A model generated the notes under the pieces. The model saw only the letters and a program-made list of their open reading frames with translations, searched no databases and was not told the origin of the DNA. This document shows positions 3,001-40,790 of a stretch of 64,000 bases of DNA, in pieces. Position 1 is the first letter of the stretch; every line of letters begins with the position of its first letter. Source of the DNA: Curvularia clavata (taxonomy: Eukaryota). Made by a program: the position numbers and the translations under genes. Location: contig CP089274.1 of assembly GCA_023920165.1 (NCBI GenBank), forward strand, positions 1,922,001-1,986,000. Reading direction: 5' to 3'.

Positions 3001-4022
3001 CGATGACTTACATACTTGCTCTCAGACCTGTTGCGGCGGGATTGGAGCTTGCTGGCATGCAGACTAGCCGATCGATCGTCGTATGCCGTATCATCCAAGG
3101 GAGGGAATGGTTCCATTTCTCCATGCCGGTCTTTGAGGCTTTGGGACAATGACTGGTGTGGAAGTCTGAATCGCATTTGACCGAGATTGTGTGGCTGACC
3201 TGGACCATGATACAATTGTCCTTGTCCTTTATTCAATTGACCCTTTGAATTGTGGGGATGTCTTGTGTTGGCATACGCGTAAGTATAACCACCAGTCGAC
3301 GGTGTCGGTCCCTCAAAGTTCTGTGAAGCTTGCGAGGACAGGCCTATGTTGTCGTTCAAGGCAGATGAGGTCGACCGACTGTTGAGGGTTGACAACCTGG
3401 GCCCGCCCCTGTGAGAGGCAAGGCAAGTATGTAAGTTATGAGGCCGCAAGTTGTGTGCATGGCGCAGGTTTGTATGAGACCTGTTTCCTGGGGCACTGTT
3501 GAGAGACTGCACGGTATATGTCGTCGACTGCAAGCGGTTGGGGTCTCTATCGTGATTTTCGATCATTCCCGGTAGCGACGATGAAGGGGGATTCGACATC
3601 GCTGGCGGGCTGCCATACTGAGGACCATTTGATCCGGTCGGGCCTCTCGATGTTGAAGATGATGAGGAGTATCCAGGAAGAGGCTTTATTGCTCTACTGA
3701 ATAAGTTCGACATTGAAGAAGTTGCTGAAATACCGCTGGAGGCGCCATGCCACTGTGTATGGTACTGTCCGCTGCTGGAGCCAGACAAGTTGCCGAAGAC
3801 AATGTCGCCCAAGTCGCCCAATTCTGTTTCGGTTCGGAGCATAGACGTTATTCCACGATGAAAAATAGCTGGGAAATCAGAACTTATGGGTGGTAGAGGT
3901 GCGGGTTTGTCTGATGACCGACTCAGACCTGGTCTGTTGGAGCCTTTCGACATGCGACCATCCTCGTCGTTTGTATCTCGATTGGAGAGCATCTCTTTGT
4001 CGCTTGTAGGGTCCATGCTCAC
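90..4022 (-). CDS. Large Ser/Pro/Arg-rich, probably disordered hypothetical protein, interrupted by one in-frame TAG at 2337-2339 (two in-frame ORFs: 2337..4022 and 90..2336)
   Basis: ORFs 2337..4022 (561 aa) and 90..2216 (708 aa) are in the same frame. The 120 nt between them read open (QGKYLRGPDTSSCSTAKGVDSPDCADPQLSPRPHPSRTEI). Both halves share low-complexity composition; no recognisable domain. Confidence 0.6.
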
Positions 4023-4922
4023 GAGGTGCTGTCGAAAGAATCAAGTGTGGTGCAGGCAGCCTTGTCGTGCCGGGTTTGCTGCTGTTTATGATTGTGGGGT
4101 GAATGATGGACAAGCGATCAGTACGATAAGAAAGAGAAGACTGTGCTGCACTGAGAGCAATATCTAGGGGAGATGAGAATAGGAAAGACTTGTGCGACCC
4201 CTATCAGGATCCCTATAGAGAACGGAGTGGTGTTGGTGATATGGGTGTGTTTGATGGGCTGAAGGAGGAGGCGGAGAGAGTCAGGTGGAGACGCTATTTT
4301 GATAGTGAGGCTCGCGCCTGCTCTACATCTACCACGACTGGAGCCGCTCCTCAACGACAGCCTAACCGGAAGGAGCCGACGCAAGAGATGACAGCAATCA
4401 AAAGATGAAAAGAAAACGAGAAACGAGCAGCGTACGTGCTCGAGAGATTGGTCCCTACTTACGCCAGGTATACTGCACCTTTGAGATGTTTGCTGCAGCA
4501 GAAGGATCTCAAAAAATAATCAGTGCCGTCAACATGGCCCCAAGCCTCCTCTTTGCAAAGCTTTTGGTCAATTACCGCAGACCACCGTTCTTCCATATCC
4601 AGCGCCAGCACGACAGCTGGCCCTCAACACATTGGAAACTTTCCATACAACAGCACTTCCTACCAAGAAAGCCTGCCTGACAGGCAAAACCGACCCCGCA
4701 TAGCTCGTCATAAGGAAACGATAAAGAGAGAGAAATACCAATATATACAGTTAAAGATTTCTGTCGACCGCTAAGACTGCCGACTACCAACCGCGTCAGA
4801 GACGACAGCATTGGGGATGCACAAAACGAGCAGTACGCAGTCAAATGGGGTATAAAGCCATGCAACGCCATACGAGGTCAAAGAATTGCACATGATGGAA
4901 TGGAGATCAAAGGAAACGGATA

Positions 4923-6786
4923 TCACTCAGCAATAGGACCAATATCGCCCGACTTCTTCTTGGTGAATAGTCGTTTAAGGGATGTAAAGCTACTCCGTTT
5001 GGACAGCCGCTTGGTGGAGGCATCCGCATGGGTAGACATGGAGGTGTGAGGGCGGTTTGGCAATTCGGCAGGCTTTGAGAAGGAGTCATCAGACTGATCA
5101 AGAACAGGAGACCTAGTACCCCCTAGACTGCCAGAGATGGAGCCCTTAGGGGTGTTGAGATTTCGAGTGGGGAATAGGCCAAATTGTGCCGTTTGCCGCG
5201 ATGACATGGACGAGGCTGAGCGTGGCGACGCATAACCTGGGGACATAGCCGATGCATCAGAGACAGATGAGTAAGCAGAGTCCTTGGCAGTCAAAGGGGG
5301 GCTGCTATCCTCAGCATCTGGCTTCGCATCTGCATGCCTAGATGTTGACGTTTTTTCATCAGCAGGCACGTTGGAGGGCGAAGGGGTCTCCTGGTGTCCC
5401 GTAGGCTGGTGTGTACTACTGGGCTCTGCTAACGGCGTCGTTCTTCCACGTTCCTCGTCATTGTACCAGGTTCCCTGGTAATAATCATGCTGTTCTGTCT
5501 GACGTTGCACATGCACGTCAGCACTAGATACCGCTGACGCTGTGGATGAATCCTGGCTCCGCTCTGGGGTCTGGGTAACAGAGTCGGATTTTTCGACAAT
5601 TTCCGACTGGTGCTGAGGCTTAGCCTTAATCGTGGAATGTCGTTTAGGTGTTCCAAACCCCGCTGGTGTTTCCCGACCGGAAGACGAAGCACTCATGAAG
5701 GGAGGGCGCTCAGGAGGTGGTGTAGGCAGAGGCTTGTTATTCGCAAAATTCCGAAATGAACGACCCTCACGCGAGTTGGACGAGTTTCGAGACGACGTGC
5801 GCGTTGCAATCTAACAGGATTAGTACTCTGAAGTAAAAGAGGCACCAAGTAACCCGGATATAATGTTGAAAGACATCAGGCCATCTTACCAAGCTTCGAC
5901 GACTGGCAGCACCACAGCGCTTCTCAATCTCGTTACAGTAGCTGCTGACTTGTACGAGCACAACACCCAATCTTTCTGCTTTGGCGACCAGACTCTGCAA
6001 AAACTGCGACCAGCCTCCAGTATTTCCACACATGGCAGAATATATCCGTCCAATATCCTCATTTCGATATGTCCACGCGTCTCCCACGTCGGCCAAGTAC
6101 ATGTCAAGCTCCTGGTTTGCTTCACGGAATATGTTGATGTCGACAAGGTAGTCGTTGAGTAGTTGCGACATGCGTCCAATGGTGCGTTCGATTACGATAT
6201 TGCCGTCGAGTAGCTGGGCACGATAGGAACGATCCTCGAGAAGGCGGTCAAATTCGTTTACGTGTTCCATGGGCACCTTGAGACATTTGTGGCGGAACAG
6301 CATGTCCTTCATGCTACTTTCCAGGTCCTCATTCGCTCTCTGCAGAAAGCTGTCAAGCTCATTGACATGCTTGAGCAGAATGTCTGCCACGTCGGCCACA
6401 GACTTCTCCAGATGCTGATGTAACAGGTGAACACCAAATATAATCTGCGCGATGGTTTTGGTCAGAGCATGGAACTTGCCCTTTGGGTTGTGCCGCCAGT
6501 GGCAGCTATAGGTAAAGTTCCACGAGGGCTCGAGGGCGTTTTCGTCTCTACACAACAATTGCTGGCGGGTCTTGACGCCTTTCTTGGGGGCTACAAAGGG
6601 GACATGGCCTGTCTCGCCAGTGGCGTCGAGCATCGACTCTTCGAAGGGGGCCTGCATGGAGGCTATGGGATGGATGGGGAAGGTGGCCGTCATGATGCGT
6701 TTGTCGCGCTCGTCTTGCCATGCGTAGGCGTCGCGGTCTTCGTGGCTACGGTGACTTCTTTGGGACGGCCGTCGAAGAGGAACCAT
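4923..6786 (-). CDS. Conserved fungal hypothetical protein: helical/coiled-coil N-terminal domain plus Ser/Thr-rich disordered tail (2 exons)
   Basis: Exon 6786..5890, intron 5889..5811 (GTAAGA...TACTAAT...TTAG), exon 5810..4923 joins ORFs 5767..6786 and 4923..5696 in frame. Heptad-like helical region LLKHVNELDSFLQRANEDLESSM. Confidence 0.75.
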
Positions 6787-7878
6787 GGTGATGTAACGAC
6801 AAGAGCGGTAGGTGGTGGGCCCCCAAGGGCCAAGAGGTGGCTATCAGCTCGGGGGTCCTGTGGTGCTACAAGGCCAATTGGGGTCGTCGTCGTCGTCGTC
6901 TCACACTTCAAAGGCCTCAGGGCGGTATACGCGGACGCGCGACTGAAGAATCGAGATTGCCGAGGTGTCTTGGGGCGGGCATCCACAGGGGTCTCCTAAC
7001 AAAGACGCATCCCGGGAACTGGCATTGTGGGGGGAGGGGGTTTAACGGCGCAAGCGATGGAAATGTTAAGATGTGTCGGAGATGGCGGAAAGTAGACTGG
7101 ACAACGGACACGGTCCCAAACGTCCAGGGCGCCTTTGGTTCGTCAGTCATCAGGTCACAGGCCACAGGGGAGCCCTTCTGGTCGCCAGGAGGATGCTGCA
7201 GGTGGTGCGCAGGGCTTGCCCCGAACAAGTTTGGTTGCATCCCTTAGTGCCCGTGACGGCTGAGACGCCAAAGCAGGGCGGGGGAACCCGCCTCGCCACT
7301 ACAGCCAGCCAGCCATCCATCACCAGTCATCCCAACAGCAACCGGCCAACAAGTCTCCAGCTCCCGCTCCCTTCTGCTGCCCGGCACACACACACACGCC
7401 CTCTGCTGTCCCTCTCATCCTACGCTTGTTCGGGGCTAGGCGCGCCAGACGGCAAACTCGCCCTGGATTTGTTTTTCCCAATCTCACCCCTCACCTCGTG
7501 CGCTAGAAGATATGCAATGCAGCCGCCAGCACCAGACCAGGGACACGAAGAAGCAACGGCCTGGATCTTCCCAAGGCCGCCCGCCCTGAGAGCGGCCGCC
7601 TGCCGTCCTGTCGCTCGCTTTTGCGCGCCCAAGAGTTTCCGCCTGCGCTGATGGGCAACCCTCCATCATGGATACCTTGTTAGCTGAAACACCGCAGCCC
7701 ATCGCCAACGTCATCAACCAGGCCCGGCGTGACGTGACGGGGCCCGGCATCCAGGCCGCTGCTGTTCGACGGTTCAGACTGTGTGCCTGCACGTGTAGAA
7801 TGTGATACTGTGATTGTGTAGCGGCCAAGGCGATCTCTTCTATCCCATCACCTTTGCAAGCGACACCAAAGCCTCCCA

Positions 7879-7907
7879 GTGTGTGTGTGTGTGTGTGTGC
7901 GTGTGTG
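7879..7907. repeat. (GT)n microsatellite
   Basis: gtgtgtgtgtgtgtgtgtgtgcgtgtgtg read directly. Confidence 0.9.
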
Positions 7908-8764
7908 CAGTCGCTTACGATGCCAGCACATCTTCGCTACCGCTCATCATTTGCTATGCCACGTGCAAACTTGCGCGACGCCTTTCCCATACTAAGTTTA
8001 GGGGGGCTTTGAGCCCCGGACGAAAAAGCTTGATGGAAATGTTTCGAGGCTGCTTGATTGAACACGGGTAATGCATGCCACCTGTCACTATGACGGGGCT
8101 GAGAGGCCCGCTCCTAAAATTCCGCGTCGACATGTGTATGTAGCGCCAAACTCGTCAGGCCGCATCAACCAGGTGTATTATGTACCAACTAGAGCTTTTA
8201 CCGTGCTCATGATTGCTGTTACAATGGCACGAAATGGGCACCTTTGGGTCACGTGAGAACACAATCTCATAGGCTCCTTCGCGGCCTTATGGAAACGAGG
8301 ATCGACCACCAACCCCATATATTTCCGAAGTTATATTTCAGGGCTGCTAGATAAATTTCATTTCGTATCGAACACGTACTTGTATGAGTCTCGCAAACTG
8401 GGGTTCATGATACACGACTCGCGTGAAGAAGCATGTCAGATTTAACAGGTGGTTCTATAGGAATACCTAGCAGCTGTCCCGTCGCATGGGTTGCCTGGAG
8501 CAGCTGGCCCATAAGCAGCATATGCTTGCTGACTGAATCTTGGAATCAAACCTAGGATCATGATAAAACAGGTCACTGGAACACACGCACACCCCCAGCA
8601 CTTGTAGTAAGAAAGAGCATTCCCTACACAGTAGCTTATCTACTGGCTTTGCTTACAGCAGATACACGCTGAAGATGCAGGGCCAGAACGACAAACCAGG
8701 CGCAACGGCGCATATGCATATGCACATATATTAATTCCGGGCGGGCCAACCTTGCTTTTCTAGT

Positions 8765-29350: not shown

Positions 29351-30250
29351 TTGAGTTGTTCTGATTGATAGAAGTCTGAATATTTATAAACAATATATAA
29401 CGAGCAAAAGTTGCAGACCTCGTCAGCTCGTGCTGCATTGTTAGTGGGTCTGCAACTGCGAAAACCTGTTTGGGTGGGGCTGGGCCCAATTTTGACTGAC
29501 CCCCACCTACTCCCATGTCGTGAGGAACTTTCAACCTACACAGCATGTAATGGAATTGTATTATTACTATCCTACTCCGTAGGCACAGCGACGAATAATA
29601 TAGGACGTGTTTCATCAACCAGATATCATATGGCTTCAGCCGCACAGGTTTCTTTTTGCGTCTGTTGTTCTCCAATCTTCTTTTTGCTTTTCTCGCTAGT
29701 TATAGAGATATGTGATCAGTAGCTTTTCTTACATAGAGCACTGCCTGCTCTTGTAATATTTTATATGTCGACGGCTTTTTTAGTCCAAAATGTTCTTCTA
29801 CTCATGTCACACCTCCCAGAAGGTTACATGTGAACGCGCATGCAATAGGGCTGACATTTCCAGCTGCAAGCGAACGGTTGCATTATAAATCCCAGCCGTG
29901 TAAATAGGCACCGGCATCTGCACATAAGCGCTACTCAATGCCGACCACTACACATGAGGTCGATGATACGCTGCAACCTCGCTAGCCACTCGACATGTTT
30001 ATGCACATGGATTCAAACAACGCCCGTGAAGGCATGCTCCGTGGTAAGGCGTTCAGTTCGCGTGACTTCTTTCTCTCCTCTTTCTCTCAACATAAGAGTC
30101 AGATTCTTGGACTACGTAGCTCAACATCTTGTGAAACAAAGTCACTACGATAAGGATTGGATACAAAGACCTACCTCTATATTTCTACGCAATTTTCCCC
30201 CCTCTCTCTTAACTGTATATTTTCCCCTCTCAACCATTGCATGTTTCGCG

Positions 30251-31873
30251 ATGTCCTCCTTCAACACTAGACAGCCATCTGCACCAAGGCACATACCAAC
30301 AGATAGTGTCATACCACTGCATAGGCAGGATGATACCTTTCAGAACCGCAATCTCTCAGTAGAATTCACTATGCGCTTCGACGATGTTCTGGATGCGCAA
30401 CAGCTTGCCGATTCGCTTTGGAAACTGCTAGAGAAGCCCGGCTGGAGGAAGCTGGGAGCACGCTTGCGCCTAAACAAATCCACCGACCGACTCGAATACC
30501 ACATCCCTACCCAGTATACAAAGGAACGCCCGCCAATCAATTTCACGCAAAATTCGTATGACATGAGACTGGAAGAACACCATATCGGGCGCAGATTTCC
30601 AAAAGTCGACGATGGTGATCGCATACAAGCTTTTGATGTTCTAGATTCATTGCATGAGCTTACCCAGACGGAAAACAGTACAGCTGTGCTTGCTGATTGG
30701 ATCTACAGCGACAAAGCACAGCTAGGACTCCACATAGTGAATTTTCAAGATGCCACATTGGTTACGTTGACATGGCTGCACGCACTGCTGGATGGCATGG
30801 GACGCCGAGCGCTCTTGAATGCATGGGTAGCGGTGCTAGAGGGACGTGATGACGACGTACCAGAGTTCTGGGGTTACGACTTCGATCCCTTGGAAGACCT
30901 TGGAGCGCCTTTGAAAGATGATGCCAGGTCGATTGAGAACAGTCCTGCATCAAAAGAGAAGCAGCATCGGTTCTGGATGGCGACGCAAGGCATCAAGACA
31001 TGGCTGTTAAGGCTGCTGAGCTTCAAGTCTGCTTTCGCCTACCTTTACTCTCGTATCTTCGGATCTTCTCAAATAAATGGCGGCCGTATGATCTACATGC
31101 CTCCATCCTACATGACCCGACTACGCACTGAAGCGATGCGCGATCTTGCCTCACTCGATTCTTCACAAATAACCTACAACACCTCGAGTCCTGCCAACCC
31201 AAAACCCTTCCTCTCCGATGGTGACATAATCTCCGCATGGCTGGTCCAGCGCCTCGCAGTTTCAGACCTCAAGCTCTTAAAAAGTCCTCCAAGTCGTCCA
31301 GTCCAAATCATCAACGTCTTGGGGATGAGGGATATACTATCTACAGCAACAGCAAAGTACAAGGTGCTGATTCCAAAGGACAAAGCCTACATTGGGAACT
31401 GCACTGCAGGAATCATCACTCAACTAGGTCTGAAGCAATTTCTCGATCTGCCACTCGGCCACCTAGCTGCACGATTGCGCAAAGACCTTGTTGAGCAGGG
31501 GACGAGGGACGTCGTTGAAGAGCGGCAACGCGCCAATCGCACCAGTCAGCAAACTAGCGCGTCGCCGCCAAATGCGTCAATGGCACCGGCGAGGTTCGTT
31601 ATATCCAACTGGGCGAAGGGAAAGTTTTTTGAAACGGATTTCTCGGCTGCCATTGTGCCTGGTAAAGGCCCCTCAACCAACAGCCGAGTAGCTAGGGGTA
31701 AGCCAACATATATCCATGCCTACGCGACGGATGCACGTGTAAACAGTAATGAAGCAGTATTGGGAAGTATCGGGAATTGCGTTGGCAAGGATGCGAGAGG
31801 TGGTTATTGGATTGGCGGGCTGCTTGCAAAGGCCTATGAGCAGGCATTTGAAGTTGCTGTGTTGGGAGGCTGA
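30251..31873 (+). CDS. CoA-dependent acyltransferase (BAHD/transferase, TRI101-like fold), single exon
   Basis: HxxxD motif LTWLHALLDG, GWRKLGARLR, FLSDGDIISAW, C-terminal SNW..FFETDFS. First plausible ATG at 30251. Confidence 0.75.
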   Translation: MSSFNTRQPSAPRHIPTDSVIPLHRQDDTFQNRNLSVEFTMRFDDVLDAQQLADSLWKLLEKPGWRKLGARLRLNKSTDRLEYHIPTQYTKERPPINFTQNSYDMRLEEHHIGRRFPKVDDGDRIQAFDVLDSLHELTQTENSTAVLADWIYSDKAQLGLHIVNFQDATLVTLTWLHALLDGMGRRALLNAWVAVLEGRDDDVPEFWGYDFDPLEDLGAPLKDDARSIENSPASKEKQHRFWMATQGIKTWLLRLLSFKSAFAYLYSRIFGSSQINGGRMIYMPPSYMTRLRTEAMRDLASLDSSQITYNTSSPANPKPFLSDGDIISAWLVQRLAVSDLKLLKSPPSRPVQIINVLGMRDILSTATAKYKVLIPKDKAYIGNCTAGIITQLGLKQFLDLPLGHLAARLRKDLVEQGTRDVVEERQRANRTSQQTSASPPNASMAPARFVISNWAKGKFFETDFSAAIVPGKGPSTNSRVARGKPTYIHAYATDARVNSNEAVLGSIGNCVGKDARGGYWIGGLLAKAYEQAFEVAVLGG

Positions 31874-32094: not shown

Positions 32095-32418
32095 TCACTG
32101 CCAAAACTTTTCCACGTCTTCAATCCTCAAACATTCTTGTTCCGGCATCTCGCTTGGCGTTGGCGCTTGACTTGAATCCGACTTGGGCATGTCTGAAGCG
32201 TCTATGCCCCAGCGCGTAAGCTCCTCCTGGCTCTCTGTCCACTCTTCGTCATTGCATGGAGGAGTTGAGACTACGGGCTTTTCAAGGTGCGGTTGTGCCG
32301 CTTGCGCTTGACGATACTCGGTTTGCGAGTAGAGTATATGACGTTGTGCGCGGCAATGGCCAATGGTGTGGTCGTGTTGGTTTGTTGTAACAGCTACGAG
32401 TTCGGTAGCAGCTGTCAT
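32095..32418 (-). CDS. Small acidic hypothetical protein (~107 aa)
   Basis: ATG-initiated ORF with a TATAAAA box on the minus strand at ~32563-32569 and a (CATA)n tract in the putative 5' UTR; no recognisable domain. Confidence 0.4.
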   Translation of the reverse strand: MTAATELVAVTTNQHDHTIGHCRAQRHILYSQTEYRQAQAAQPHLEKPVVSTPPCNDEEWTESQEELTRWGIDASDMPKSDSSQAPTPSEMPEQECLRIEDVEKFWQ

Positions 32419-32477
32419 GATTGTCGATTGAGTTATTGTTGGGACTTGTATGTGTAGCTGTGATCCCACTTGAGGTC

Positions 32478-32505
32478 TGTATGTATGTATGTATGTATGT
32501 ATGTA
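32478..32505. repeat. (TATG)n tetranucleotide microsatellite
   Basis: tgtatgtatgtatgtatgtatgtatgta read directly. Confidence 0.9.
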
Positions 32506-32942
32506 ATGTAGTCGTATGAATTGCTTTGCTGCGATGGTTAGATGTAAGTGTGGTGCCCTAGGTTTTATACGGAGAGTTTATTAATAAGTCATGCAATCAT
32601 GAAGTGTTGATAGCAATCTTCAGAAGAATAGGGTGACTTTGGAAAGAACACGGTGTGTGTGGCGTTGTTCGATTGCATTGCATAAGCTAACTTGGTGATG
32701 GTGGTGAGACCAGGAAAGTGGCGCCACTTCAGCTGTGAGCGGCCGGTTCCTACGGCGATAACGCTGCTAATACGATTTGCGAATACAAACACGAAAATGC
32801 TACACGACAATTAAAATGAGAGAACACGAACCAGAATCGCGTTATACGGTGCAAGACTATGGGTATCCTGAATACAAAGTAGCTCAAAAGCGGAATGCGA
32901 AGAAATAAAAGTCAAGGAAAGTGGCTCAAGGAAGTTGCGGCA

Positions 32943-34482
32943 TCACGAATCTGAATCGATGCGCGAAGATTCCGAGATGGGCGGTGAGGGAGGATGCGAT
33001 GGATCGAGATAAGATTTCTTCGCATGAGGTAACTCGTCTGCGGCTGCTTCGGTGCGTGTGCGCTTCCCCAGCGCGTTGGCTGATTCGACGTTGATACGTG
33101 GTAGCGTGACTTGGTCGACCGGTTGCTGTGACTTTTGCTGCGCCAGTCGCTCTTCTTTTCTTCTAAGGACAGCCTTTCTCCATTGTGCCAACACACGCAT
33201 GATAGAAGCAATGTGCTCGAAATGTGATACGGGTGGCGCAGACTCCATTTCCACCCACTCAATTTTCCTTAGGCCCATTAGTGCCTTGTTGGCAAACGCC
33301 TTGGAAAGGGCCTTGGTCATGAACTCTATCTGCTGCTGGTTCAAGGTCGGATCTCGGAGGCCAAAACGGAGAGTCAAGTAACCCTTTGGCTTGGACCGCC
33401 AACCGGGAGGGTATAAAGCGTGGGCTTTGGCGGGTTTTAGAGGCGCCAAAAATATATGTTGCTCGCTGTGATGGGCACTTTTGCCACGAGACCATATCTG
33501 CGACGGTGTATCTTTACGTCTGGGATCCATGTTGATGCGTTGATACAGGCGAAAGGTGGATATAGGCCCCTCAGCGTCTTCATTCAGAAGTTCCTTAAGA
33601 GCATCAATGAGGGCACGAGTATAAGAGTTCTTGCCCGGGGCTTCGGTTGTCTGGTCGATTGCACATGCACTGAGGAGTTCAAATCGTTTATGCCCATCCC
33701 TGCCAGACTTGACAAAGTTGCTCGAGTAGCATGTGTCTAGAATGGTCAGGACGTCGCCCTCAACGTCCTCATGCCTGAGCAGGTCTTCTGCCTTGTTCCA
33801 AGTTGCGCGTGCATTCTTGCGAAGTCCTCTGTCTTGCAGCAAGGCGTTGTTACGGAGGCTTCCTGTGAGCTCGAGGCACTTCTTCTCGTCGTTGAAGACG
33901 CCGTGGCCGGTGTAGTATACGATAAGGAGATTGTCTGGCCCGTCGTTGTTGCAGATAAAGTCGCTGACGTAGCTATCGAGCTGGTGCTGGGGCTTCTTTC
34001 CGACGTTGAGTTCGACGATGCTGGTGCTGTAGTTGAAGCTCTCGCTGAACAGGGCCTCGAGCTCTCGGGCCTGTGTTTGGTCAGATCAGACCCTTGACAT
34101 TCCCCCAGCACTCCCGTCCACATGGACATACCTCGTCACCAGTTTTCAGCTCGTCGAGTTGATCCGCCCACTTGATGATCAGCACAGCCACATGGGAGTA
34201 TCCCTCTGGCAGATCCATATTCCGTGCAATCGCCTCGGCCCACCAGTTCTGCATCTCTGCAGCCTTCTCCTGGTAGTTGACCTCTGTCGCGCTCGGCTTG
34301 CTTGCGACGACGCGCCCCTCGCTCTGCGGAACCGATCCATTTTGCGTCGGCTCTTCGTCAATCGACTGTATTCGTATGTCGGCGTGGATGACTTTGTTTG
34401 GATATGGGTTCACGACGCGAGGCGCAATCTCGGCCGCCATTGTGTTCACGACGTGTACGCTTGTGTCTGAGGAGAGAGCCAT
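32943..34482 (-). CDS. Caspase-like (clan CD, peptidase C14-like) protease-domain protein, 2 exons, ~492 aa
   Basis: Spliced product (intron 34131..34071, GTATGT...CTGAC...ACAG) reads YSHVAVLIIKW...ELEALFSESFNY...LLIVYYTGHG (His codon 33903-33905)...DVLTILDTCYSS (Cys codon 33729-33731)...FELLSAC...SYTRALI. Hydrophobic strands precede the GHG and DxC motifs, as in the caspase fold. Confidence 0.8.
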
Positions 34483-35035
34483 GAATCAAGAAAACGGCGG
34501 GGTTGCTGCACAGCGGGAGGTTTGCAGCAACCGGCCATAATGAAGAAAGCGTTCACTACTTTCAGCCCCCATATTGGACGGAATATGCAACACGACTCAG
34601 AGCGGGGAGATGGCAGATGCGAGCGCCAGCCCGCCAATCAGCGCGTCTAGAAATTCCATTGGGGGCCAAAAGCTGAGCCTCCACTATCCGTTTTGGACGC
34701 TCGTCTTACCGGGATTGTCTGATGCCATATGCGAACGCTGCTCATGGCAAACGGTAGATGACCATGTTGGCTTGCTCGACTGGAGCGGGCTTGCAGAGGA
34801 TGCGCCAATGCGTGGTATCGCTGGTATCGATGCAGCAAATGTTGCGGCTGTACAAGCATATGGGCCCCTATCTGTCATCAATCATGCCGCCCACCCAGCC
34901 TGTGTTGCCTGGGGCTGCAAGCCGCGCTTTTGAGAGGCCAGCAACAAGGACTTGTATAATAGCAGCTATCTTTGCTCTTCCTTGAGGGCATTCTCCACAA
35001 GGCTATCTGCCTCACTTCTCACACCCACCCAGACC

Positions 35036-35447
35036 ATGGCAACCACCACATTTGACAGCCAGCACATGCAAGCTGCTGAGAACATTCCCGCAGTCATGGC
35101 TGACGATCAGCCACACGAGGAGTATCTAGCCTCACTACCCGACGACACAATCCCAGACACCAAATCCGGCGTGCGCGTGGATCCCGGCGCCGCAATGGTA
35201 AGCCCAGAACTCTCGATTACACATGCGATACAGTCTCACAATGCCTTAGGCAAGCGCGCGCTTCAAGAAGGGTGATGTTGTTCAGAAGCCAATCTTTGTC
35301 AACGGTATGCGAACCAAGGGCGTCTTCACCATCTACGACCGCAGACTCAATCCTGCGGGCTATGTCGAGTACCGGCTTAAGAATTTCTACGACCTCAAGG
35401 TCGAAAGCGGTTGGACTCGCGAGAAGGAACTGAAGCCTGGGAGCTGA
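35036..35447 (+). CDS. Small spliced protein (119 aa): acidic N-terminus plus predicted SH3/Tudor-like beta-barrel
   Basis: Exon 35036..35197, intron 35198..35249 (GTAAGC...CTCAC...TTAG), exon 35250..35447 encoding ASARFKKGDVVQKPIFVNGMRTKGVFTIYDRRLNPAGYVEYRLKNFYDLKVESGWTREKELKPGS*. Phase-0 junction, C/G-ending codon bias. The spliced form is missing from the ORF track. Confidence 0.7.
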
Positions 35448-35768
35448 GCGCGGGTACAGCGTCATATGTGGCTGAGTTCACCGGAAAGTTGCAAGGCGGT
35501 AGCTGAAATGACTGTGTGCAACCAATTGTGCATTGGGGCGTCCGAGGCGTTGGGGGCTGAGCTTTATTGAGGGGGCAATGACCCCGGTTGCCATCTCATG
35601 TCTGATGGCTCTGCAATTCTACAAACACAGCTATTCCGCCACACTTCGTTTAGCCACACTTCATTCTTAATGTCCATCTGAACATTTTCTGTTTCTGCGC
35701 AAAACTTTTTTCATCATCTCCGTCGCATTCTCACTTACGCACGAGGCGCGCTCCCTTTGAGACTCGCC

Positions 35769-37341
35769 ATGGCCCCTCCTCGAACCATGACGGGGGATAC
35801 CTACACCGATGAGAAGACACCTCAATCTCCAGCATCACCTGCCAACACAGATGCAACTCTAACAGGCGAAGCCTTCGTGGAAACCGCCGACACCCATTCC
35901 ACGATTCAACCGTCCGTGCGGACAAATTCGATTGATATCGAGAGTGCACAGCCTCGTAGGTGATCCCACCCGCCATTCGGCCCCCAAAGCCCACGGATCT
36001 CGGCCGAACGACCCGCCTCATCATGAAGTTGTGGTGTGTGACCGTGTCCTACTGTCAGCACTTGTATGCACAATGGCTCACCCAACGGCATCGAGACGAC
36101 GTTGCATGCGCTTCGTAGAACCTAAACAAACTAATACCTAAACAGAAGGCAAGAAGAAACGGCCGCTCATCCAACGGATAACAGTCCCTTTCCGCCCCGA
36201 ACCGGAGCCCGAATATGTGACAGAGAACCGAACGCGAAAGCGTAAGCAATAGTTCCTTGTTGGGTTGCCCATTTCTGACAATCACCAGTTGAGGAAACAC
36301 CCAATGGCTTCCCCAGGCTTGCTGCGTTCCAATCAAGCGAGCCGAATTTCTCCCTATATCGATCTTTTAGCTACTTGCATTCACGAGTCTTGCTTGACCT
36401 CCAAGATGAAATCACTTGTCTAGAGAAGGAGCTGGACGAAGTCGACTGGGATGATTTCGATGAGGATTCTGACCGTTTGAAGTCGAGAGACTTTGATATT
36501 CGTCAGCCTACTGGAGAGGGAGAGCCTCGCAATCGTCGAATCATACTCCGTGAAATCAAATCCAAGCTGATGGAATATGGTAAGCATTCACTACCACACA
36601 TCTTTGTTGGGCTCAACACTGATAACAACCAGATGAGGTGCTCATTAAAGCACGAACCATAGAGTCCTTTCAAAGGCCTTCAGACCGCAACTACCGCAGC
36701 GTGCGACGCTATTGCCACAACGAAAAGCCACTAATGGACGCTGAGATGGATTCTATCCGCAGCAAAGAAGACATTGTCTCACTCTCCAGCGGCCGCGAAT
36801 GGGCTACCTTTGACGGCGGAGTAGAAACCATGATCGGCCAAATCGACCGTTTGCTCCAAAAAGTCTTCAGAACTAAGTCTTTGCCACTCCAGGTAATTTT
36901 GAGTCACCCCATCAAACCACCATATGGTTGCTGATTATCGATGTGTAGAAATACTTCCGCACGCCAGAGGCCCAAGAAAAGACGACAAATCCCTACGTCT
37001 CCTTTTACAGCAGCACTCGCATTGACAAGCTCGTCAATGTCCTCATCACTTTTGTAATCTTTTGTCTTCTAGTTGTCCCTGTAGTCACCATGTACCAGCT
37101 CACCAGTACTGCTGCACACGTCGATCCTGGTGCTTCGGACAAGGATGCCATTGCTGCTGCTGATATCAACAAGAGGGATACATTCAACGCCGTCGGCGTC
37201 TTGATGGTGTTTACATTGCTTTTCAGCGCCGCCATGAGTCTGTTAACAAAAGCCGCGCGGCACGAGCTGTTTGCTGCATCGGCGGCGTATTGTGCCATTT
37301 TGGTCGTGTTCATTGGAAATTTCACTGGACCTGGGAATTGA
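35769..37341 (+). CDS. DUF6594-type fungal membrane protein, 5 exons, ~408 aa
   Basis: Exons 35769..35955, 36146..36241, 36289..36579, 36633..36892, 36949..37341 (1227 nt). PNGFPRLAAFQSSEPNFSLYRSFSYLHSRVLLDLQDEITCLEKELDEVD, IKSKLMEYDEVL, EDIVSL, three C-terminal hydrophobic helices ending ELFAASAAYCAILVVFIG. Confidence 0.85.
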
Positions 37342-38405
37342 TGGTCTGTAATGTTTAGAGCTTAACGAATTATTACGAATAATGAATGATGACAAAAAAC
37401 GCATTTTGTGGTATGGTGAAATGATAGGGAGCCATATGCACAGGAGCATGGTGTTGATGGTTTTTGTCACGCGTTTATAATGACTTTTGTCATTTGTGTC
37501 ATGATTTGGACGAAATTATTTGATGTGGGAACTCCATGGTGTTTTGCGATATTTGAATTCAGGTGAACTAAACCTGTCATTTTTTCAGTCAGACAAAAAA
37601 TGCCATTCGTTTGAAGCAGCTACACAGCATAGCAATCATGCAACCACACAACCCATGTAATCAGAATATGTGTAACCAGGCAGTGAGTCACCACTATAAA
37701 CCCTGTGCACACCGCTCTGAGAGCGGTTGGTATATAATCGCATATTTTCCATATGTCTGTTTAACATCTGCACTGTCCCAGTAAAGCGAAGCCTTTTCTG
37801 TCTTGACGCTGTTCTCCTTCCGGATCTTCTTGATAGCGCGGATCTGACTTTTGGTTATGTTGCAATTTCTCTCCATAAATTGGTCTAGTGGAGAGGTGTC
37901 GAGTGTTGACCGACAAAAGAGAGAAGCAACGGCAGAGGTTTTTTCAGCGTCGTCTGGATCAAGGGTCTCCAGCATCTCGTTTGGTATCATAATTCATAGC
38001 GATACCTGCCAATAGTATCCAGATGTTGACAAGAAGGTTAGGCGGTCAGCTTTATCATAGATCAGCACCATTGCGAAGTCCAGAAGACATTTCCGAAAGG
38101 CGATTTCCTGCTGGATGTATGTGATAATGGTGCCTCGATCCCGATAGAACTTTTTCTAGTGCGGAAGCTGCAGAGAGCCAGACGTTTAATTTTGTTTTGT
38201 GTATGGTCTTCGTATTCGGTCTAGACACATGGGGAGTTCAGCATGCTGCCTTCGTTCGATATATCTGGCTGAGACTGGTTTTGTAGGGCATCATGAAGTA
38301 TTAACAAAGTGTCTATAGTTTAGTTTTTATGTGATCGATACCTCAACTGTTCGGACATGGCCGTGTCCGAAACGACCTGCTTCTTTAGTCGAAACCAGTA
38401 TATTT

Positions 38406-39719
38406 CTACTCAGAAATCTCAACAACCACCTTTCCCCGAACTCTGCCCCCCACCATCTCTCTCTTGACCTTCTCCCAGGCCCCTTGATACAGCTTCTCGT
38501 CCAAAATCCCTTTAACAACATCCTGCACCACAACACTCACCTCCCTCTGCTCCGCCAACTCCGCCACCTGCTCCAAATACCCGTTCTTCTGATACAGCAT
38601 CACATTCGCATACCTCGGTCCAAACAACCAGCCCCAAACATGCCTCATTACTTGCTTCGGATAAGTGAAGTAGGTTAATGGCCCACCCATCGCCGTCCTC
38701 TCAGTCTTGTCCCCCACAATAGTAACGTATGCGGCATTCCGGTGCAGCAGTTGCGTCCAGTACTCAAACATCTCGGTGCCGCCCACACAATCAACGTACA
38801 AGTCGAACTTGTTTCCTTGCGGACGCTTCGACAACAGTGACTGCGGTACGTCCTGCGTAGCGTAATCGATAACTTCGTCGGCGCCTAGGTCTCTGACGAA
38901 ATCGGCATTACGCGATGAGCAGATGGCTGTGACGTGGCAGCCATAGAGCTTTTTGGCGAGCTGCACGCACCAGATTCCCACGCCGCCACTCGCGCCTGAT
39001 ACGATGACGTGCGGGCGGTCTTGGTTGGGCGATTTGGAAGGCTCGGGAAGCCAGTCTAAGCAGGCAAAGGCGGTTAGAGCGACGAGAGGGATGGCCGCAG
39101 CTTCGGGATGGGAGAGGGAACGGGGCTTCTTGGCAATGGGGTCGGTGTGTGGACAGATGCAGAGGTATTGTGTGAATGTACCTTCTGCGGTCTTTTGCTG
39201 ATGTTAGTAACTGGTTTGGGTACTCAAATATATCTCTTTCTGACGCCTTTGAGTACGTTGAAGAAGAAGATTGGACATTCCAAATGGAACAACAGAAACA
39301 GAAATTTGGGATAGTACAAGTAACAAAGAAAGAGGTGACGCTTGAAAAAAGGCATGTCTTTGTGAACAGAAGGAGAAGGGCAGCATATAAACACTTACTG
39401 GCCTATTACACAACCCAAAAACCTCGTCGCCGACCTCCCACCCCCCTTGTTTCCTGACTTCCTCTCCCACTGCAACCACAATTCCCGAGTAATCTCTCCC
39501 TATGCCCTTCTCTTTACTTCCAGCCAGCCAACCCACAACAGGATTACCCCATATCTGAATGTCGACGGGGTTTATGGCTGCGGCATGGATCTTGACTAGT
39601 ATGTCTTTGGGCGAAGGAGTGGGGATTGGGGTGTGAGTTAGATGAGGGGGAGAGGATGGCTGAGTAAAAGTCAGGGATGTGTTTGATTCTGGAAGAGAAG
39701 CAGGCACTGTAGGTGGCAT
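38406..39719 (-). CDS. MDR-superfamily NAD(P)H-dependent reductase (Yim1/RTN4IP1-like quinone/enoyl reductase), 2 exons
   Basis: [46 protein letters not shown], Rossmann [23 protein letters not shown]. One ~200-nt intron near 39195..39398. Confidence 0.85.
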
Positions 39720-40790
39720 AGTTGATTAAGTCAACTTCTCTCTTCCACAAGACTCAAGCAGATCTGATATTTTCTGACTGTCGAAGTTACGAAATAGGCA
39801 ATATGGAATCTCTCAGTGTGGTTGAAATGGTCGGGTGTATGCAACGGTACAGCAATGTGGGGCACATCATGGTGAAAGCGGTTGGATTTCTAATCGCTAT
39901 GATCTTCGTGCTGGAAGTTTCGGAGGCAGGGATGGATTGGAGGAGGGGGAGTCGCCGAGGTACCTCGCATATAGGCTATACGAGTCATGGGTCGGACCTA
40001 AAGAAGATTTGCTGATTCGACTGCAAATCGCCAATACAGGCACCTGGATGGCCTATTTTTGAGATTGACATACTTGGGTATAGCAAAATATCAGACGTTT
40101 ATAGTAACAGCTCAAGGGATTTCTCATTGTTCATGTTTCCCCCAGTTCTCCTTCGACTTACCCAAACAATGGGATAAAACACAACCCAACTCATTATCCC
40201 AGATACTATAGTTAACTACTAGCATTCAATACTACATGATGGAACATTTCAATGATTCTAGGCCCTTTAACATATCAATTGCCACTCGTTTCTTGTTTCT
40301 CAGAGTTAGTAAGTGCATCTTACTAGAATTAGCAAGGGCGACTTTGGTCAAACTAATCAAATTGACGGAGAGCAAGTTTTGAGTGTTGTTTGCAGCCCTG
40401 AGTTCTACGCAGCAGCACCCAAGCTATATATATTTTTTTGCTACAGGATATAATAGTACTTCAACTATCTAAAACGAATACGTTCGTTGTGAAATTGGTG
40501 AGTGTTCGTGGAGTGAAGTTCGGCTTCGAGAGCCTTAGTTGGGATGGGCCGAAGTGACCACCTACCTAGGGAGCGGGAGATCCGCTAGCGGCGCATCTGG
40601 TCAGCGCGACTGGTACATGCACGTCCACTACCGCAACCCCAGGACGACTCCCCTCTGACGTTGCGCATCGCAAAGGCGAGATTCACCCACAACTCGCGCT
40701 TCGGTCGCTGGTGAATACCTCGGATGCTCCCGCTCCCCCACAGCATGTAGAAGCGCACACGGTCGATTACACACGTTCCCGTTCGGCACC

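Follow-up and report, generated by a model that had tools for sequence, protein, structure and literature searches.

A conserved trio of caspase-fold protease, Tudor-like and DUF6594 genes in Curvularia clavata and other Dothideomycete fungi: a possible protease-gated membrane-effector module

Between positions 32,943 and 37,341 of a 64,000-nucleotide stretch of contig CP089274.1 of the plant-associated mould Curvularia clavata (positions 1,922,001 to 1,986,000; this whole stretch is referred to as the window), three adjacent genes encode a caspase-like protease (A), a small protein (B) and a membrane protein (C) of DUF6594, a fungal family without an assigned function. The locus raises two questions – whether these neighbours form one unit, and what such a unit could do. 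An initial annotation, made from the letters of the window, had suggested a three-gene module for defence or allorecognition, with the protease acting on the membrane protein. Conserved linkage and co-evolution mark A, B and C as one working unit, a conclusion that is supported by the comparisons below. What the unit does is answered tentatively, and with somewhat less than even confidence: the trio may be a protease-gated membrane-effector module of a cell-death or immunity type, conserved in Dothideomycete fungi, whose products act jointly.

Linkage and co-evolution of the three genes

Metagenome contigs of the Joint Genome Institute (JGI) type were scanned with the alignment of A, which gave 78 loci, most of them from a small number of Pleosporales-rich metagenomes of leaf-litter type; 67 groups remained after copies at least 98.5% identical were merged. 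Hidden Markov models (HMMs) of A, B (two rounds) and C were run on the six-frame open reading frames (ORFs) of the 78 loci and the window. 38 groups had at least 1900 bp upstream of A. In 28 of them the other strand carried B and then C, the arrangement of the window, and in the remaining ten neither was found. B was present in all three of the groups with 1200–1899 bp upstream of A, and a further 26 groups were too short for judging. Apart from one rearranged locus (L059), there were no matches to B or C elsewhere in the 561 kb of the loci or in the 64-kb window. The spacing from A to the B domain had a median of 700 bp over the loci, with a range of 474–1447 bp. Unlinked orthologues in other fungi had been named at the outset as an observation that would speak against a module; the opposite was seen, in these loci and in the paralogous trios described below.

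The same arrangement is found in named genomes. Nine of these have sequential locus tags in both the A list and the C list, and in eight of them the step from one gene to the other is exactly two tags – Alternaria dauci, Coniothyrium glycines, Plenodomus lindquistii, Pleosporales sp. CAS-2024a, Paraphaeosphaeria sporulosa, Didymosphaeria variabile, Boeremia exigua and Neocucurbitaria sp. The intervening tag in P. sporulosa (DPSP01_011247) is B. Glonium stellatum, of the Hysteriales, has A and C on one contig of 8551 bp. In the ninth genome, a record labelled Curvularia kusanoi, A (P0093) and C (P0217) are 14 tags apart. These two proteins look Didymellaceae-type and not Bipolaris-type (A is 47% identical to that of the window), which is unexpected in a Curvularia and may come from mislabelling or paralogy.

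The trio has also been kept through duplication. There are 11 paralogous loci in which the arrangement is unchanged, with A 26–35%, C 44–57% and B 16–31% identical to the proteins of the window. The last exon of C in several of these loci is 95.6–100% identical to named Alternaria proteins, and Alternaria arbusti has two such C paralogues among the matches listed, so single genomes hold several trios. In a quick maximum-likelihood IQ-TREE tree of A, both B and C are present in all paralogue lineages with enough flank, except L036. The three genes diverge together: pairwise distances correlate at r = 0.87 between A and C and r = 0.88 between A and B, values that none of 2000 permutations reached, and among the paralogues alone the correlations are 0.78 (A–C) and 0.73 (A–B).

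The genes that surround the block have been lost or inverted while the block stayed intact. The flanking ORFs of the window (at least 150 aa, 18–52 kb) were not found in seven loci with 4–10 kb of flank (L011, L013, L017, L019, L020, L024 and L026). In close relatives the block – a small ORF, A, B and C – is inverted as a unit relative to its flanks, with breakpoints at the block borders. An acyltransferase-like gene (29855–31870 in the window) lies beyond A in the window and beyond C in the Alternaria-like loci L007, L018/L048, L010/L022, L003, L014 and L015, and a dehydrogenase gene (38409–39725) lies beyond C in the window and beyond A in L002. Gene order in Dothideomycetes is scrambled by inversions, yet many syntenic blocks persist in Pleosporales, where 502 are present in at least 75% of 8 genomes (PMC3516569). 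The existence of paralogous trios, the co-divergence of the genes and the lost or inverted flanks together indicate that the linkage is more than inherited synteny. The suggestion of a three-gene module is thus borne out by the retention of order and orientation, by co-divergence and by rearrangements that end at the block borders.

Pairwise ratios of non-synonymous to synonymous substitution rates (dN/dS) were between 0.04 and 0.51 in all three genes, indicating purifying selection, with B under the weakest constraint in the paralogues; saturation affects pairs whose dS exceeds 1. Orthologues over the Pleosporales are 46–97% identical.

Two side observations concern the block itself. The small ORF 3' of A in the window (32098–32577, minus strand, 160 aa) has no assigned family. 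In L002, L007, L014, L015, L016 and L018/L048 a relative, 43–54% identical over about 90–104 residues, flanks A on the corresponding side. Among close relatives the ORF travels with the trio as a fourth neighbour; in the distant loci it was not seen. The sole rearranged trio is at L059 (17–2450), where the caspase-like ORF stops early without the C-terminal domain and B and C come after it on the same strand. This is possibly a decaying copy.

Gene models and predicted proteins

A, B and C were found where the initial annotation had put them, and gene models were built from the sequence of the window (Table 1), which with its short introns is of Pezizomycotina type. Its description of the layout proved accurate: the gap between the head-to-head genes A and B, given as about 550 bp, measures 553 bp, and the start codon of C, placed about 320 bp beyond B, is 321 bp downstream of the B stop codon. 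The genes are intact, as described, and all six introns are canonical (GT..AG), with exact joins in contigs of the runs X1, X3, X9 and X10 from four studies; each intron is bridged in at least three of the four runs. These are public runs whose RNA type is only guessed by the index, and the evidence used is the contigs that bridge introns. The small protein of 119 aa is indeed spliced, in a two-exon model. For gene A, the N-terminus and the exon junction are identical to those of the annotated Bipolaris zeicola orthologue P0004. Bipolaris species are the closest named relatives: the identity between exon 2 of A and B. zeicola P0004 is 83%, and exon 5 of C reaches 92% with a B. maydis protein and 90% with a B. 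oryzae protein. The contigs, which come from three coded organisms and four studies, have few differences from the window at the trio. Two loci tried as intron-free sources of whole proteins were discarded – the long ORF of L005 runs across an intron that stays in frame, and introns are present in L017.

Some contigs are unbroken from B into exon 1 of C. Record 11 of X3 corresponds to 34577–35840, and record 1 of X1 corresponds to 32700–35955 with the A and B introns already removed. Contigs continuous from B into exon 1 of C mean that the transcription units of A, B and C abut or overlap. Read-through transcription from B to C is possible, and contigs cannot prove a single transcript.

Table 1. 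Features of the trio in the window, and A-like genes with a HET-domain piece in four metagenome loci
Sequence	Feature	Coordinates	Strand	Description
Window	Gene A, coding sequence	34482..34132 + 34070..32943	-	492 aa, caspase-like protease
Window	Gene A exon 2	32943..34070	-	Residues 118-492 + stop; most of caspase-fold domain, C-terminal domain, tail
Window	Gene A intron, 61 nt	34071..34131	-	Removed in contigs of 4/4 runs; junction shared with annotated P0004
Window	Gene A exon 1	34132..34482	-	Residues 1-117; N-terminal motif NKVIHADIRIQSI, long helix, first caspase-fold strand
Window	A/B intergenic region, presumed shared promoter	34483..35035	.	553 bp between divergent ATGs
Window	Gene B	35036..35197 + 35250..35447	+	119 aa, small Tudor-like protein
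Window	Gene B exon 1	35036..35197	+	Residues 1-54; acidic, probably disordered; PDTKSGV at 35153-35173
Window	Gene B intron, 52 nt	35198..35249	+	Removed in 4/4 runs
Window	Gene B exon 2	35250..35447	+	Residues 55-119 + stop; small beta-barrel of Tudor/chromo-barrel/PWWP type (predicted)
Window	Gene C	35769..35955, 36146..36241, 36289..36579, 36633..36892, 36949..37341	+	408 aa, five exons, DUF6594
Window	Gene C exon 1	35769..35955	+	Residues 1-62 + one base; acidic; GEAFVET at 35865-35885
Window	Gene C intron, 190 nt	35956-36145	+	Removed in 4/4 runs (X10: just 19 letters on one side)
Window	Gene C exon 2	36146..36241	+	Basic linker KKKRPLIQRITVPFRPEPEPEYVTENRTRK
Window	Gene C intron, 47 nt	36242-36288	+	Removed in 4/4 runs
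Window	Gene C exon 3	36289..36579	+	DUF6594 start (GFPRLAAF 36306-36329), helical region; Pfam E 1.1e-21
Window	Gene C intron, 53 nt	36580-36632	+	Removed in 4/4 runs
Window	Gene C exon 4	36633..36892	+	Mid DUF6594; Pfam E 9.6e-07, 29.4 bits vs cut-off 30
Window	Gene C intron, 56 nt	36893-36948	+	Removed in 3/4 runs
Window	Gene C exon 5 + stop	36949..37341	+	Hydrophobic helices 37030-37095, 37183-37248, 37267-37323; Pfam E 1.1e-18
Window	3' untranslated end of C transcript	37342..37399	+	A-run as loose letters after 37399, one X10 contig only
L031	A-like gene with HET-domain piece	6935-8743		
L033	A-like gene with HET-domain piece	3786-5477		
L034	A-like gene with HET-domain piece	5319-6857		
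L039	A-like gene with HET-domain piece	6266-7991		

Searches and fold predictions used exon pieces and database orthologues in place of full-length spliced window proteins. The fold of A was assessed from an AlphaFold2 model of the orthologue P0004 together with an alignment of 30 orthologues. The core of the model (residues 97–310) has a predicted local distance difference test (pLDDT) score of about 80–95, and the ends are disordered; the first strand of the caspase fold, HVAVLIIKW, begins at residue 97. A Foldseek search with the model gave 273 matches in the PDB at E ≤0.001, with the MALT1 paracaspase on top (E 1.1e-07), and all of the matches listed were paracaspases, caspases, metacaspases or proteins of a related fold. 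By VIA-align, MALT1 had a Z score of 17.9 (root mean square deviation (rmsd) 3.5 Å over 203 residues), tied within one Z unit with caspase-9 and caspase-3 (both 17.4) and Arabidopsis metacaspase-4 (17.3). The initial annotation had named structure prediction as a point at which its caspase-fold protease could fail, and the prediction returned the caspase fold; the alpha/beta caspase fold of A is confirmed at the level of the predicted structure.

The catalytic dyad that had been read from the sequence is also present. In A of the window the putative dyad consists of His173 in YYTGHG (codon 33905–33903) and Cys231 in LDTCYS (codon 33731–33729). Both residues are invariant in the orthologue alignments (n = 30 and n = 40), and both are present in 57 of the 68 metagenome-locus rows that span the two columns. 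Judged from the fold and the intact dyad, A is apparently an active caspase-fold cysteine protease. An Asp two residues ahead of the catalytic Cys is invariant among the A orthologues, and this placement (LDTC) is taken here to be the layout of paracaspases and metacaspases, which cut after Arg/Lys.

A defines a fungal caspase-fold family that is barely detected by Pfam. Against Peptidase_C14 (PF00656), with its gathering cut-off of 21.4 bits, exon 2 of the window scored 15.4 bits and P0004 scored 16.1 bits. The same family was matched at E ≤0.01 by 29 of the 30 A orthologues (best 1.4e-06), and some database relatives of A carry a precomputed PF00656 label. Peptidase_C14 was the only Pfam family found in A and its orthologues, where no death, CARD, Ig, CHAT or S8 match was seen (E ≤0.1 or 0.01), and no TPR, WD40 or ANK repeats were found in A. 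The family profile, compared with the sequences of solved structures, found no caspase or metacaspase – there were two chance-level matches to docking domains of nonribosomal peptide synthetases (NRPS; E 0.17 and 0.34). Beyond the caspase domain, A has a family-specific beta-alpha-beta-alpha domain and then a disordered tail which is rich in Lys and Arg (KR-rich) and has PPSPP motifs. The N-terminal motif of A and its PPSPP tail are candidate elements for docking or cleavage. The type I metacaspases of fungi (Yca1/Mca1; PDB entries 4f6o and 7qp0 are among the matches) share with A the fold, the His/Cys dyad and a fungal origin, and probably also a preference for a basic residue at P1. They differ from A, which has a weak Peptidase_C14 match, an extra conserved C-terminal domain and tail, and constant linkage to B and C.

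B was described in the initial annotation as SH3/Tudor-like. The description finds support in the predicted fold and none at the sequence level, where Pfam had no match to B at E ≤0.1. Relatives of B at E ≤0.001 amount to just 28 representatives among 1.84 billion proteins. The last 65 residues, encoded by exon 2 of the window gene, are predicted with a pLDDT of 94.5 as a small five-stranded beta-barrel. This barrel matches the MRG15 chromo barrel with Z 8.2 (rmsd 1.9 Å over 59 residues) and Tudor domains with Z 8.0 and 7.7; the match to the NSD3 PWWP domain has a template modelling (TM) score of 0.71 and the best Foldseek E-value, 0.024. A Z near 8 is usual for small barrels and a middling score at this domain size, and the match list of B also includes SH3-like, KOW and R67 dihydrofolate reductase (DHFR) barrels. 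Leads from the ESM Atlas were unnamed small proteins of bacteria and viruses, R67-type DHFR and Hva1_TUDOR (PF11160), with TM of 0.46–0.54 by query. B thus shares a predicted five-stranded barrel, not a Pfam sequence match, with the Royal-family barrels (Tudor, MRG15 chromo barrel, PWWP) and Hva1_TUDOR. As regards the methyl-lysine/arginine-binding aromatic cage of such domains, the alignment has conserved aromatic residues at the sequence level: Tyr41 is invariant, and Phe7 and Trp56 are common. In the N-terminal part of B a Lys/Arg-Ser/Ala-x-Val core (PDTKSGV in the window) is present in the 13 full-length relatives listed and in the window, and is a candidate docking or cleavage element. 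A cleavage motif 'E-T-K' shared by B and C was considered and dropped – the C paralogues read E-T-x-T-x-(P)-L-(Q/E), with no conserved basic residue. Prediction of an A–B complex (Decorospora gaudefroyi P0005 and P0121; no alignments, no controls) gave 0.00 in two runs, which favours neither side.

C is a DUF6594 protein (PF20237) with three predicted C-terminal transmembrane helices, as first annotated. In a scan of exons 3, 4 and 5 the scores were 78.3, 29.4 and 68.5 bits (cut-off 30), and these exons span positions 1–85, 88–148 and 162–238 of the 238-position model. The B. maydis orthologue P0151 matches positions 1–238 at E 4.2e-59. By hydropathy, the hydrophobic segments of C are at residues 306–327, 357–378 and 385–403, and the last two of these helices are almost invariant across 45 orthologues. 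The N-terminus had been called acidic. This is true of residues 1–62 (9 Asp/Glu against 3 Lys/Arg) and not of residues 63–95, which are basic (9 Lys/Arg against 4 Asp/Glu). The conserved N-terminal part of C is very likely cytosolic; its motif GEAFVET in the window reads GDAIIEI or GDAIIDI in orthologues and paralogues, and this motif and the basic linker are candidate docking or cleavage elements. Pfam found DUF6594 alone in C, with no gasdermin match and no DNA-binding or activation domain, and a search of the ESM Atlas gave nothing usable after DUF6594 clusters were excluded.

Natural variants and domain fusions

Of the ten groups in which A has neither B nor C, six are in one long-branch clade (L030–L034 and the L039 group) nested among the orthologues. 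The other four comprise L036, the fragment L047, L070 with its long ORF beside a WD40 gene, and the bacterial contig L075. In the long-branch clade, all four of the loci tested have a HET-domain piece in an exon upstream of the caspase-like domain (Table 1). In this clade (L030–L034 and L039–L042, the last placed there by the tree) the catalytic Cys is mostly lost, with Thr or Glu in its place and Gln in L042, and the His is retained throughout. The flanks of L040 and L042 are too short to judge whether B and C are present; the other loci of the clade lack both. 11 rows have no Cys – nine in the HET clade, one fragment and one that is the second tandem domain of L053 – and every locus with B and C that is readable at both columns has both His and Cys (in L053, in the first of its two domains). 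From these sequences the A-like gene of the HET clade has the appearance of a pseudo-protease fused to a death domain.

The domains of A and B are found in other combinations as well. Two annotated proteins (P0269, and P0270 of Neodidymelliopsis) join a HET domain to an A-like domain with an intact dyad. The B domain is the C-terminal end of a HET protein of 401 aa (P0141), and it also ends the kinase-like proteins P0142 (849 aa, with Pkinase matches) and P0129 (771 aa). PMC10197012 and PMC12881547 describe HET as a cell-death domain of fungi with a relation to TIR, and fusions to kinase-like domains as characteristic of fungal cell-death genes. As in the HET proteins and fungal NOD-like receptor (NLR) architectures described there, A-like and B domains sit behind HET, and B behind kinase-like domains, at the regulatory or sensing position. 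A, B and C of the window differ from these proteins in having no HET, NACHT/NB-ARC or repeat domain by Pfam. The fusions of A-like and B domains with HET, and of B with kinase-like domains, link the trio to fungal families of cell-death and immune type. The defence or cell-death context proposed in the initial annotation gains support from these fusions; the allorecognition part of that proposal does not, as discussed below.

Several further variants were observed. In L031 and L039 the divergent upstream neighbour weakly matches PF17111 (22.8 bits against a cut-off of 27.2). The paralogous A gene of L053 (4427–6916) contains a tandem pair of caspase-like domains and two YYTGHG motifs; in the second domain Ser stands at the Cys column (DCS, not DCC), and B and C lie upstream. 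In P0271–P0274 (962–1455 aa) the A-like domain is N-terminal, and Pfam at E ≤0.01 matches nothing in the other 700–1100 residues; P0274 has been given the label PF28131 in precomputed annotation. The long parts of these four proteins are possibly sensor-type extensions. The bacterial contig L075 (4321–8062) encodes a Peptidase_C14 and F5/8 type C protein beside a HipA-like kinase gene and is unrelated to the fungal trio.

Possible roles of the module

Clusters of two or three genes that pair a protease with an effector are an established pattern (PMC10197012, PMC12881547 and PMC8851545), and the reading tentatively favoured here is that the trio is a protease-gated membrane-effector module. 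A would be the active protease, with a probable specificity for Arg/Lys in view of the Asp two residues before the catalytic Cys and of the S1 pockets of MALT1 and metacaspases; C would be held in the membrane by its three C-terminal helices, and B would be a small Tudor-like binding module. A stimulus sensed through B, or relayed by it, would activate A; activated A would cut B, the N-terminal region of C, or both; the cut would alter the output of C in the membrane, by permeabilisation or in another way; and the outcome would be regulated cell death or a stress- or immune-type response. The assignment of roles draws on the natural variants. Where B and C have been lost, a HET domain precedes the A-like domain and catalysis is dispensable, and elsewhere B-like domains sit behind HET or kinase-like domains, so C would be the output, A the transducer and B the binding or sensing part.

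The nearest parallels are with known clusters of this kind. Fungal gasdermins are paired with S8 or CHAT proteases, and in Podospora anserina the pairs het-Q1/het-Q2 and Q1-6/Q2L-6 (TPR-CHAT) resemble the trio in having a caspase-related protease beside the gene of a membrane-targeting protein (Clave et al. 2022, PMC8851545). There the gasdermin–protease pairing outlasts divergence and paralogy and has relatives joined to HET and kinase-like domains, as with the trio. The differences are that the partner in the trio is, by Pfam, an integral-membrane DUF6594 protein and not a gasdermin; that A is a weak Peptidase_C14, neither CHAT (PF12770) nor S8, without TPR, WD40 or ANK repeats; and that a Tudor-like gene is always in between and the window clade behaves like a conserved orthologue set, with no idiomorphic alleles seen. 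The proposed logic, in which a small or membrane-active effector encoded beside the protease is turned on when a single cut takes away an inhibitory part, is also like that of the EACC1-caspase, Pepco-protease and bacterial gasdermin systems (bioRxiv 10.1101/2025.11.14.688446). Those systems are prokaryotic, their effectors stay soluble up to the cut, sensors (Avs and others) are fused to their proteases, and they have no Tudor-like partner. No relation to them in sequence was found, and the PADLOC models had no match to A, B, C, a paralogous C or a HET + A protein.

Several points weigh against the effector reading. C, with its predicted transmembrane helices, would be inserted in the membrane from synthesis, unlike gasdermin or EACC1, and with C in the membrane from the start the 'release of a membrane effector' proposed by the initial annotation would need another mechanism. 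The basic candidate cleavage motif ahead of DUF6594, ETKTRK, is not conserved and reads ETITVPLQ in paralogues. The near-invariant helices of C and the one-to-one, orthologue-like character of the clade fit a conserved cellular function equally well or better. All of the steps of activity – binding, what is cut, and the output of C – are inferred. The sample itself also counts here: the loci were ascertained via A alone, so that genes for B or C without A fall outside it; linkage was counted over A-containing loci and not over all DUF6594 genes; and the taxonomic cover is Pleosporales, Hysteriales and Mytilinidiales.

An unlikely alternative is that C is a membrane-tethered signalling protein, anchored in the manner of membrane-bound transcription factors, and that no cell death is involved. 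A would cut C near the membrane on a membrane or stress cue and the N-terminal helical part would then signal, perhaps in the nucleus, with B as a reader or escort. The architecture of C, a long N-terminal part and then C-terminal anchor helices, fits this, and helices that are almost invariant would suit sensing. The window clade is orthologue-like and under purifying selection. The closest folds of B are chromatin-reader barrels (MRG15 with Z 8.2, Tudor with Z 8.0, and PWWP), and the KR-rich tail of A resembles a putative nuclear-targeting signal. Pfam, however, finds only DUF6594 in C, with no domain for DNA binding or activation; the HET and kinase-like fusion partners are the company of fungal cell-death genes; and the presence of several trios in one genome suits a diversifying system more than one housekeeping pathway.

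It is less probable again that the trio is a scaffold like the CARD-coiled-coil/BCL10/MALT1 signalosome, in which C and B would only recruit and dimerise A at a membrane, with substrates encoded elsewhere. The cast of the trio would be analogous (a helical scaffold, a small adaptor and a protease), and A shares with MALT1 the Asp of LDTC. Structurally, A is matched best by MALT1 chains (Foldseek E 1.1e-07, Z 17.9), but caspases and metacaspases tie with them to within one Z unit, sequence identity between MALT1 and A is 14–15%, and Pfam sees no death, CARD or Ig domain in A, so that the death and Ig domains of MALT1 have no counterpart there; by Pfam, B and C show no relation to BCL10 or CARD proteins and no death-fold match. 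Caspase-fold enzymes are generally activated by induced proximity, a general switch that would operate on such a scaffold, and the conserved short motifs in the disordered N-termini of A and C could dock, although binding among the three proteins is only inferred. The A-like domain is often without its Cys where B and C are missing, so it may be a non-catalytic assembly module. The near-invariant helices of C are hard to explain for a mere anchor.

A third alternative, which is improbable, is that the genes are neighbours without a joint function, held together by a shared promoter, overlapping transcripts or descent. A and B do share a divergent promoter region of 553 bp, contigs join the 3' part of B to exon 1 of C, so that splitting the block could harm expression, and 502 blocks persist in Pleosporales (PMC3516569). 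Such an arrangement would be an odd fit for paralogues that keep order and orientation with A at 26–35% identity, for gene distances that track one another, and for flanks that are lost or inverted around an intact block; B and C vanish jointly in the HET-bearing A clade, and the B domain is otherwise rare (28 representatives among 1.84 billion proteins). Finally, a het-Q-type heterokaryon-incompatibility locus, whose alleles would be idiomorphic or highly polymorphic, and with it the allorecognition role first proposed, is very improbable in spite of the resemblance to het-Q1/het-Q2, a protease beside a membrane-targeting protein (PMC8851545), and of the HET fusions: orthologues are 46–97% identical over Pleosporales in an orthologue-like clade, dN/dS of 0.04–0.51 points to purifying selection in all three genes, contigs of three coded organisms from four studies nearly match the window, and alternative alleles were not seen in the contigs of the four runs.

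Clustered protease–effector pairs have been the main discovery route for fungal and bacterial cell-death effectors (PMC8851545 and bioRxiv 10.1101/2025.11.14.688446), and the trio brings new parts to this theme – a caspase-fold family that nearly eludes Pfam, a rare Tudor-like module and DUF6594 as a candidate effector. The A–B–C trio is not described in the portions of PMC10197012, PMC12881547 and PMC8851545 consulted. DUF6594/PF20237 had no main-text mention in the literature searched. The syntenic-block tables that accompany PMC3516569 could list the block uncommented. A survey of effector domains of fungal NLRs (PMC9815663) contains none of the terms 'caspase', 'C14', 'Tudor', 'transmembrane' and 'DUF65', and a search for literature on paracaspases and caspase-like proteins in Ascomycota and Dothideomycetes gave nothing relevant among the matches listed.

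The analysis turns a vague annotation into a directly testable idea, that the trio may stand for a new branch of regulated cell death or of membrane signalling in fungi. Natural experiments are available in the paralogous trios, in the clade that has HET in place of B and C and is mostly without the Cys, and in the B domains fused to HET or kinase-like domains. Should the cell-death reading prove mistaken, the cassette remains an unusually strong case of selected gene linkage amid scrambled gene order. A bolder form of the effector reading, which is speculative and unlikely, is that this subfamily of DUF6594 supplies fungi with a third type of cell-death executioner, next to HeLo/HELL and gasdermin: a resident membrane protein, silenced by its N-terminus and a Tudor-like partner and fired by a dedicated MALT1-like caspase-fold protease. 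If true, the trio would be a compact, heritable and duplicable sensor–protease–effector immune cassette of filamentous fungi, a eukaryotic counterpart of the bacterial EACC1- and gasdermin-caspase modules, and would give the large DUF6594 family its first function.

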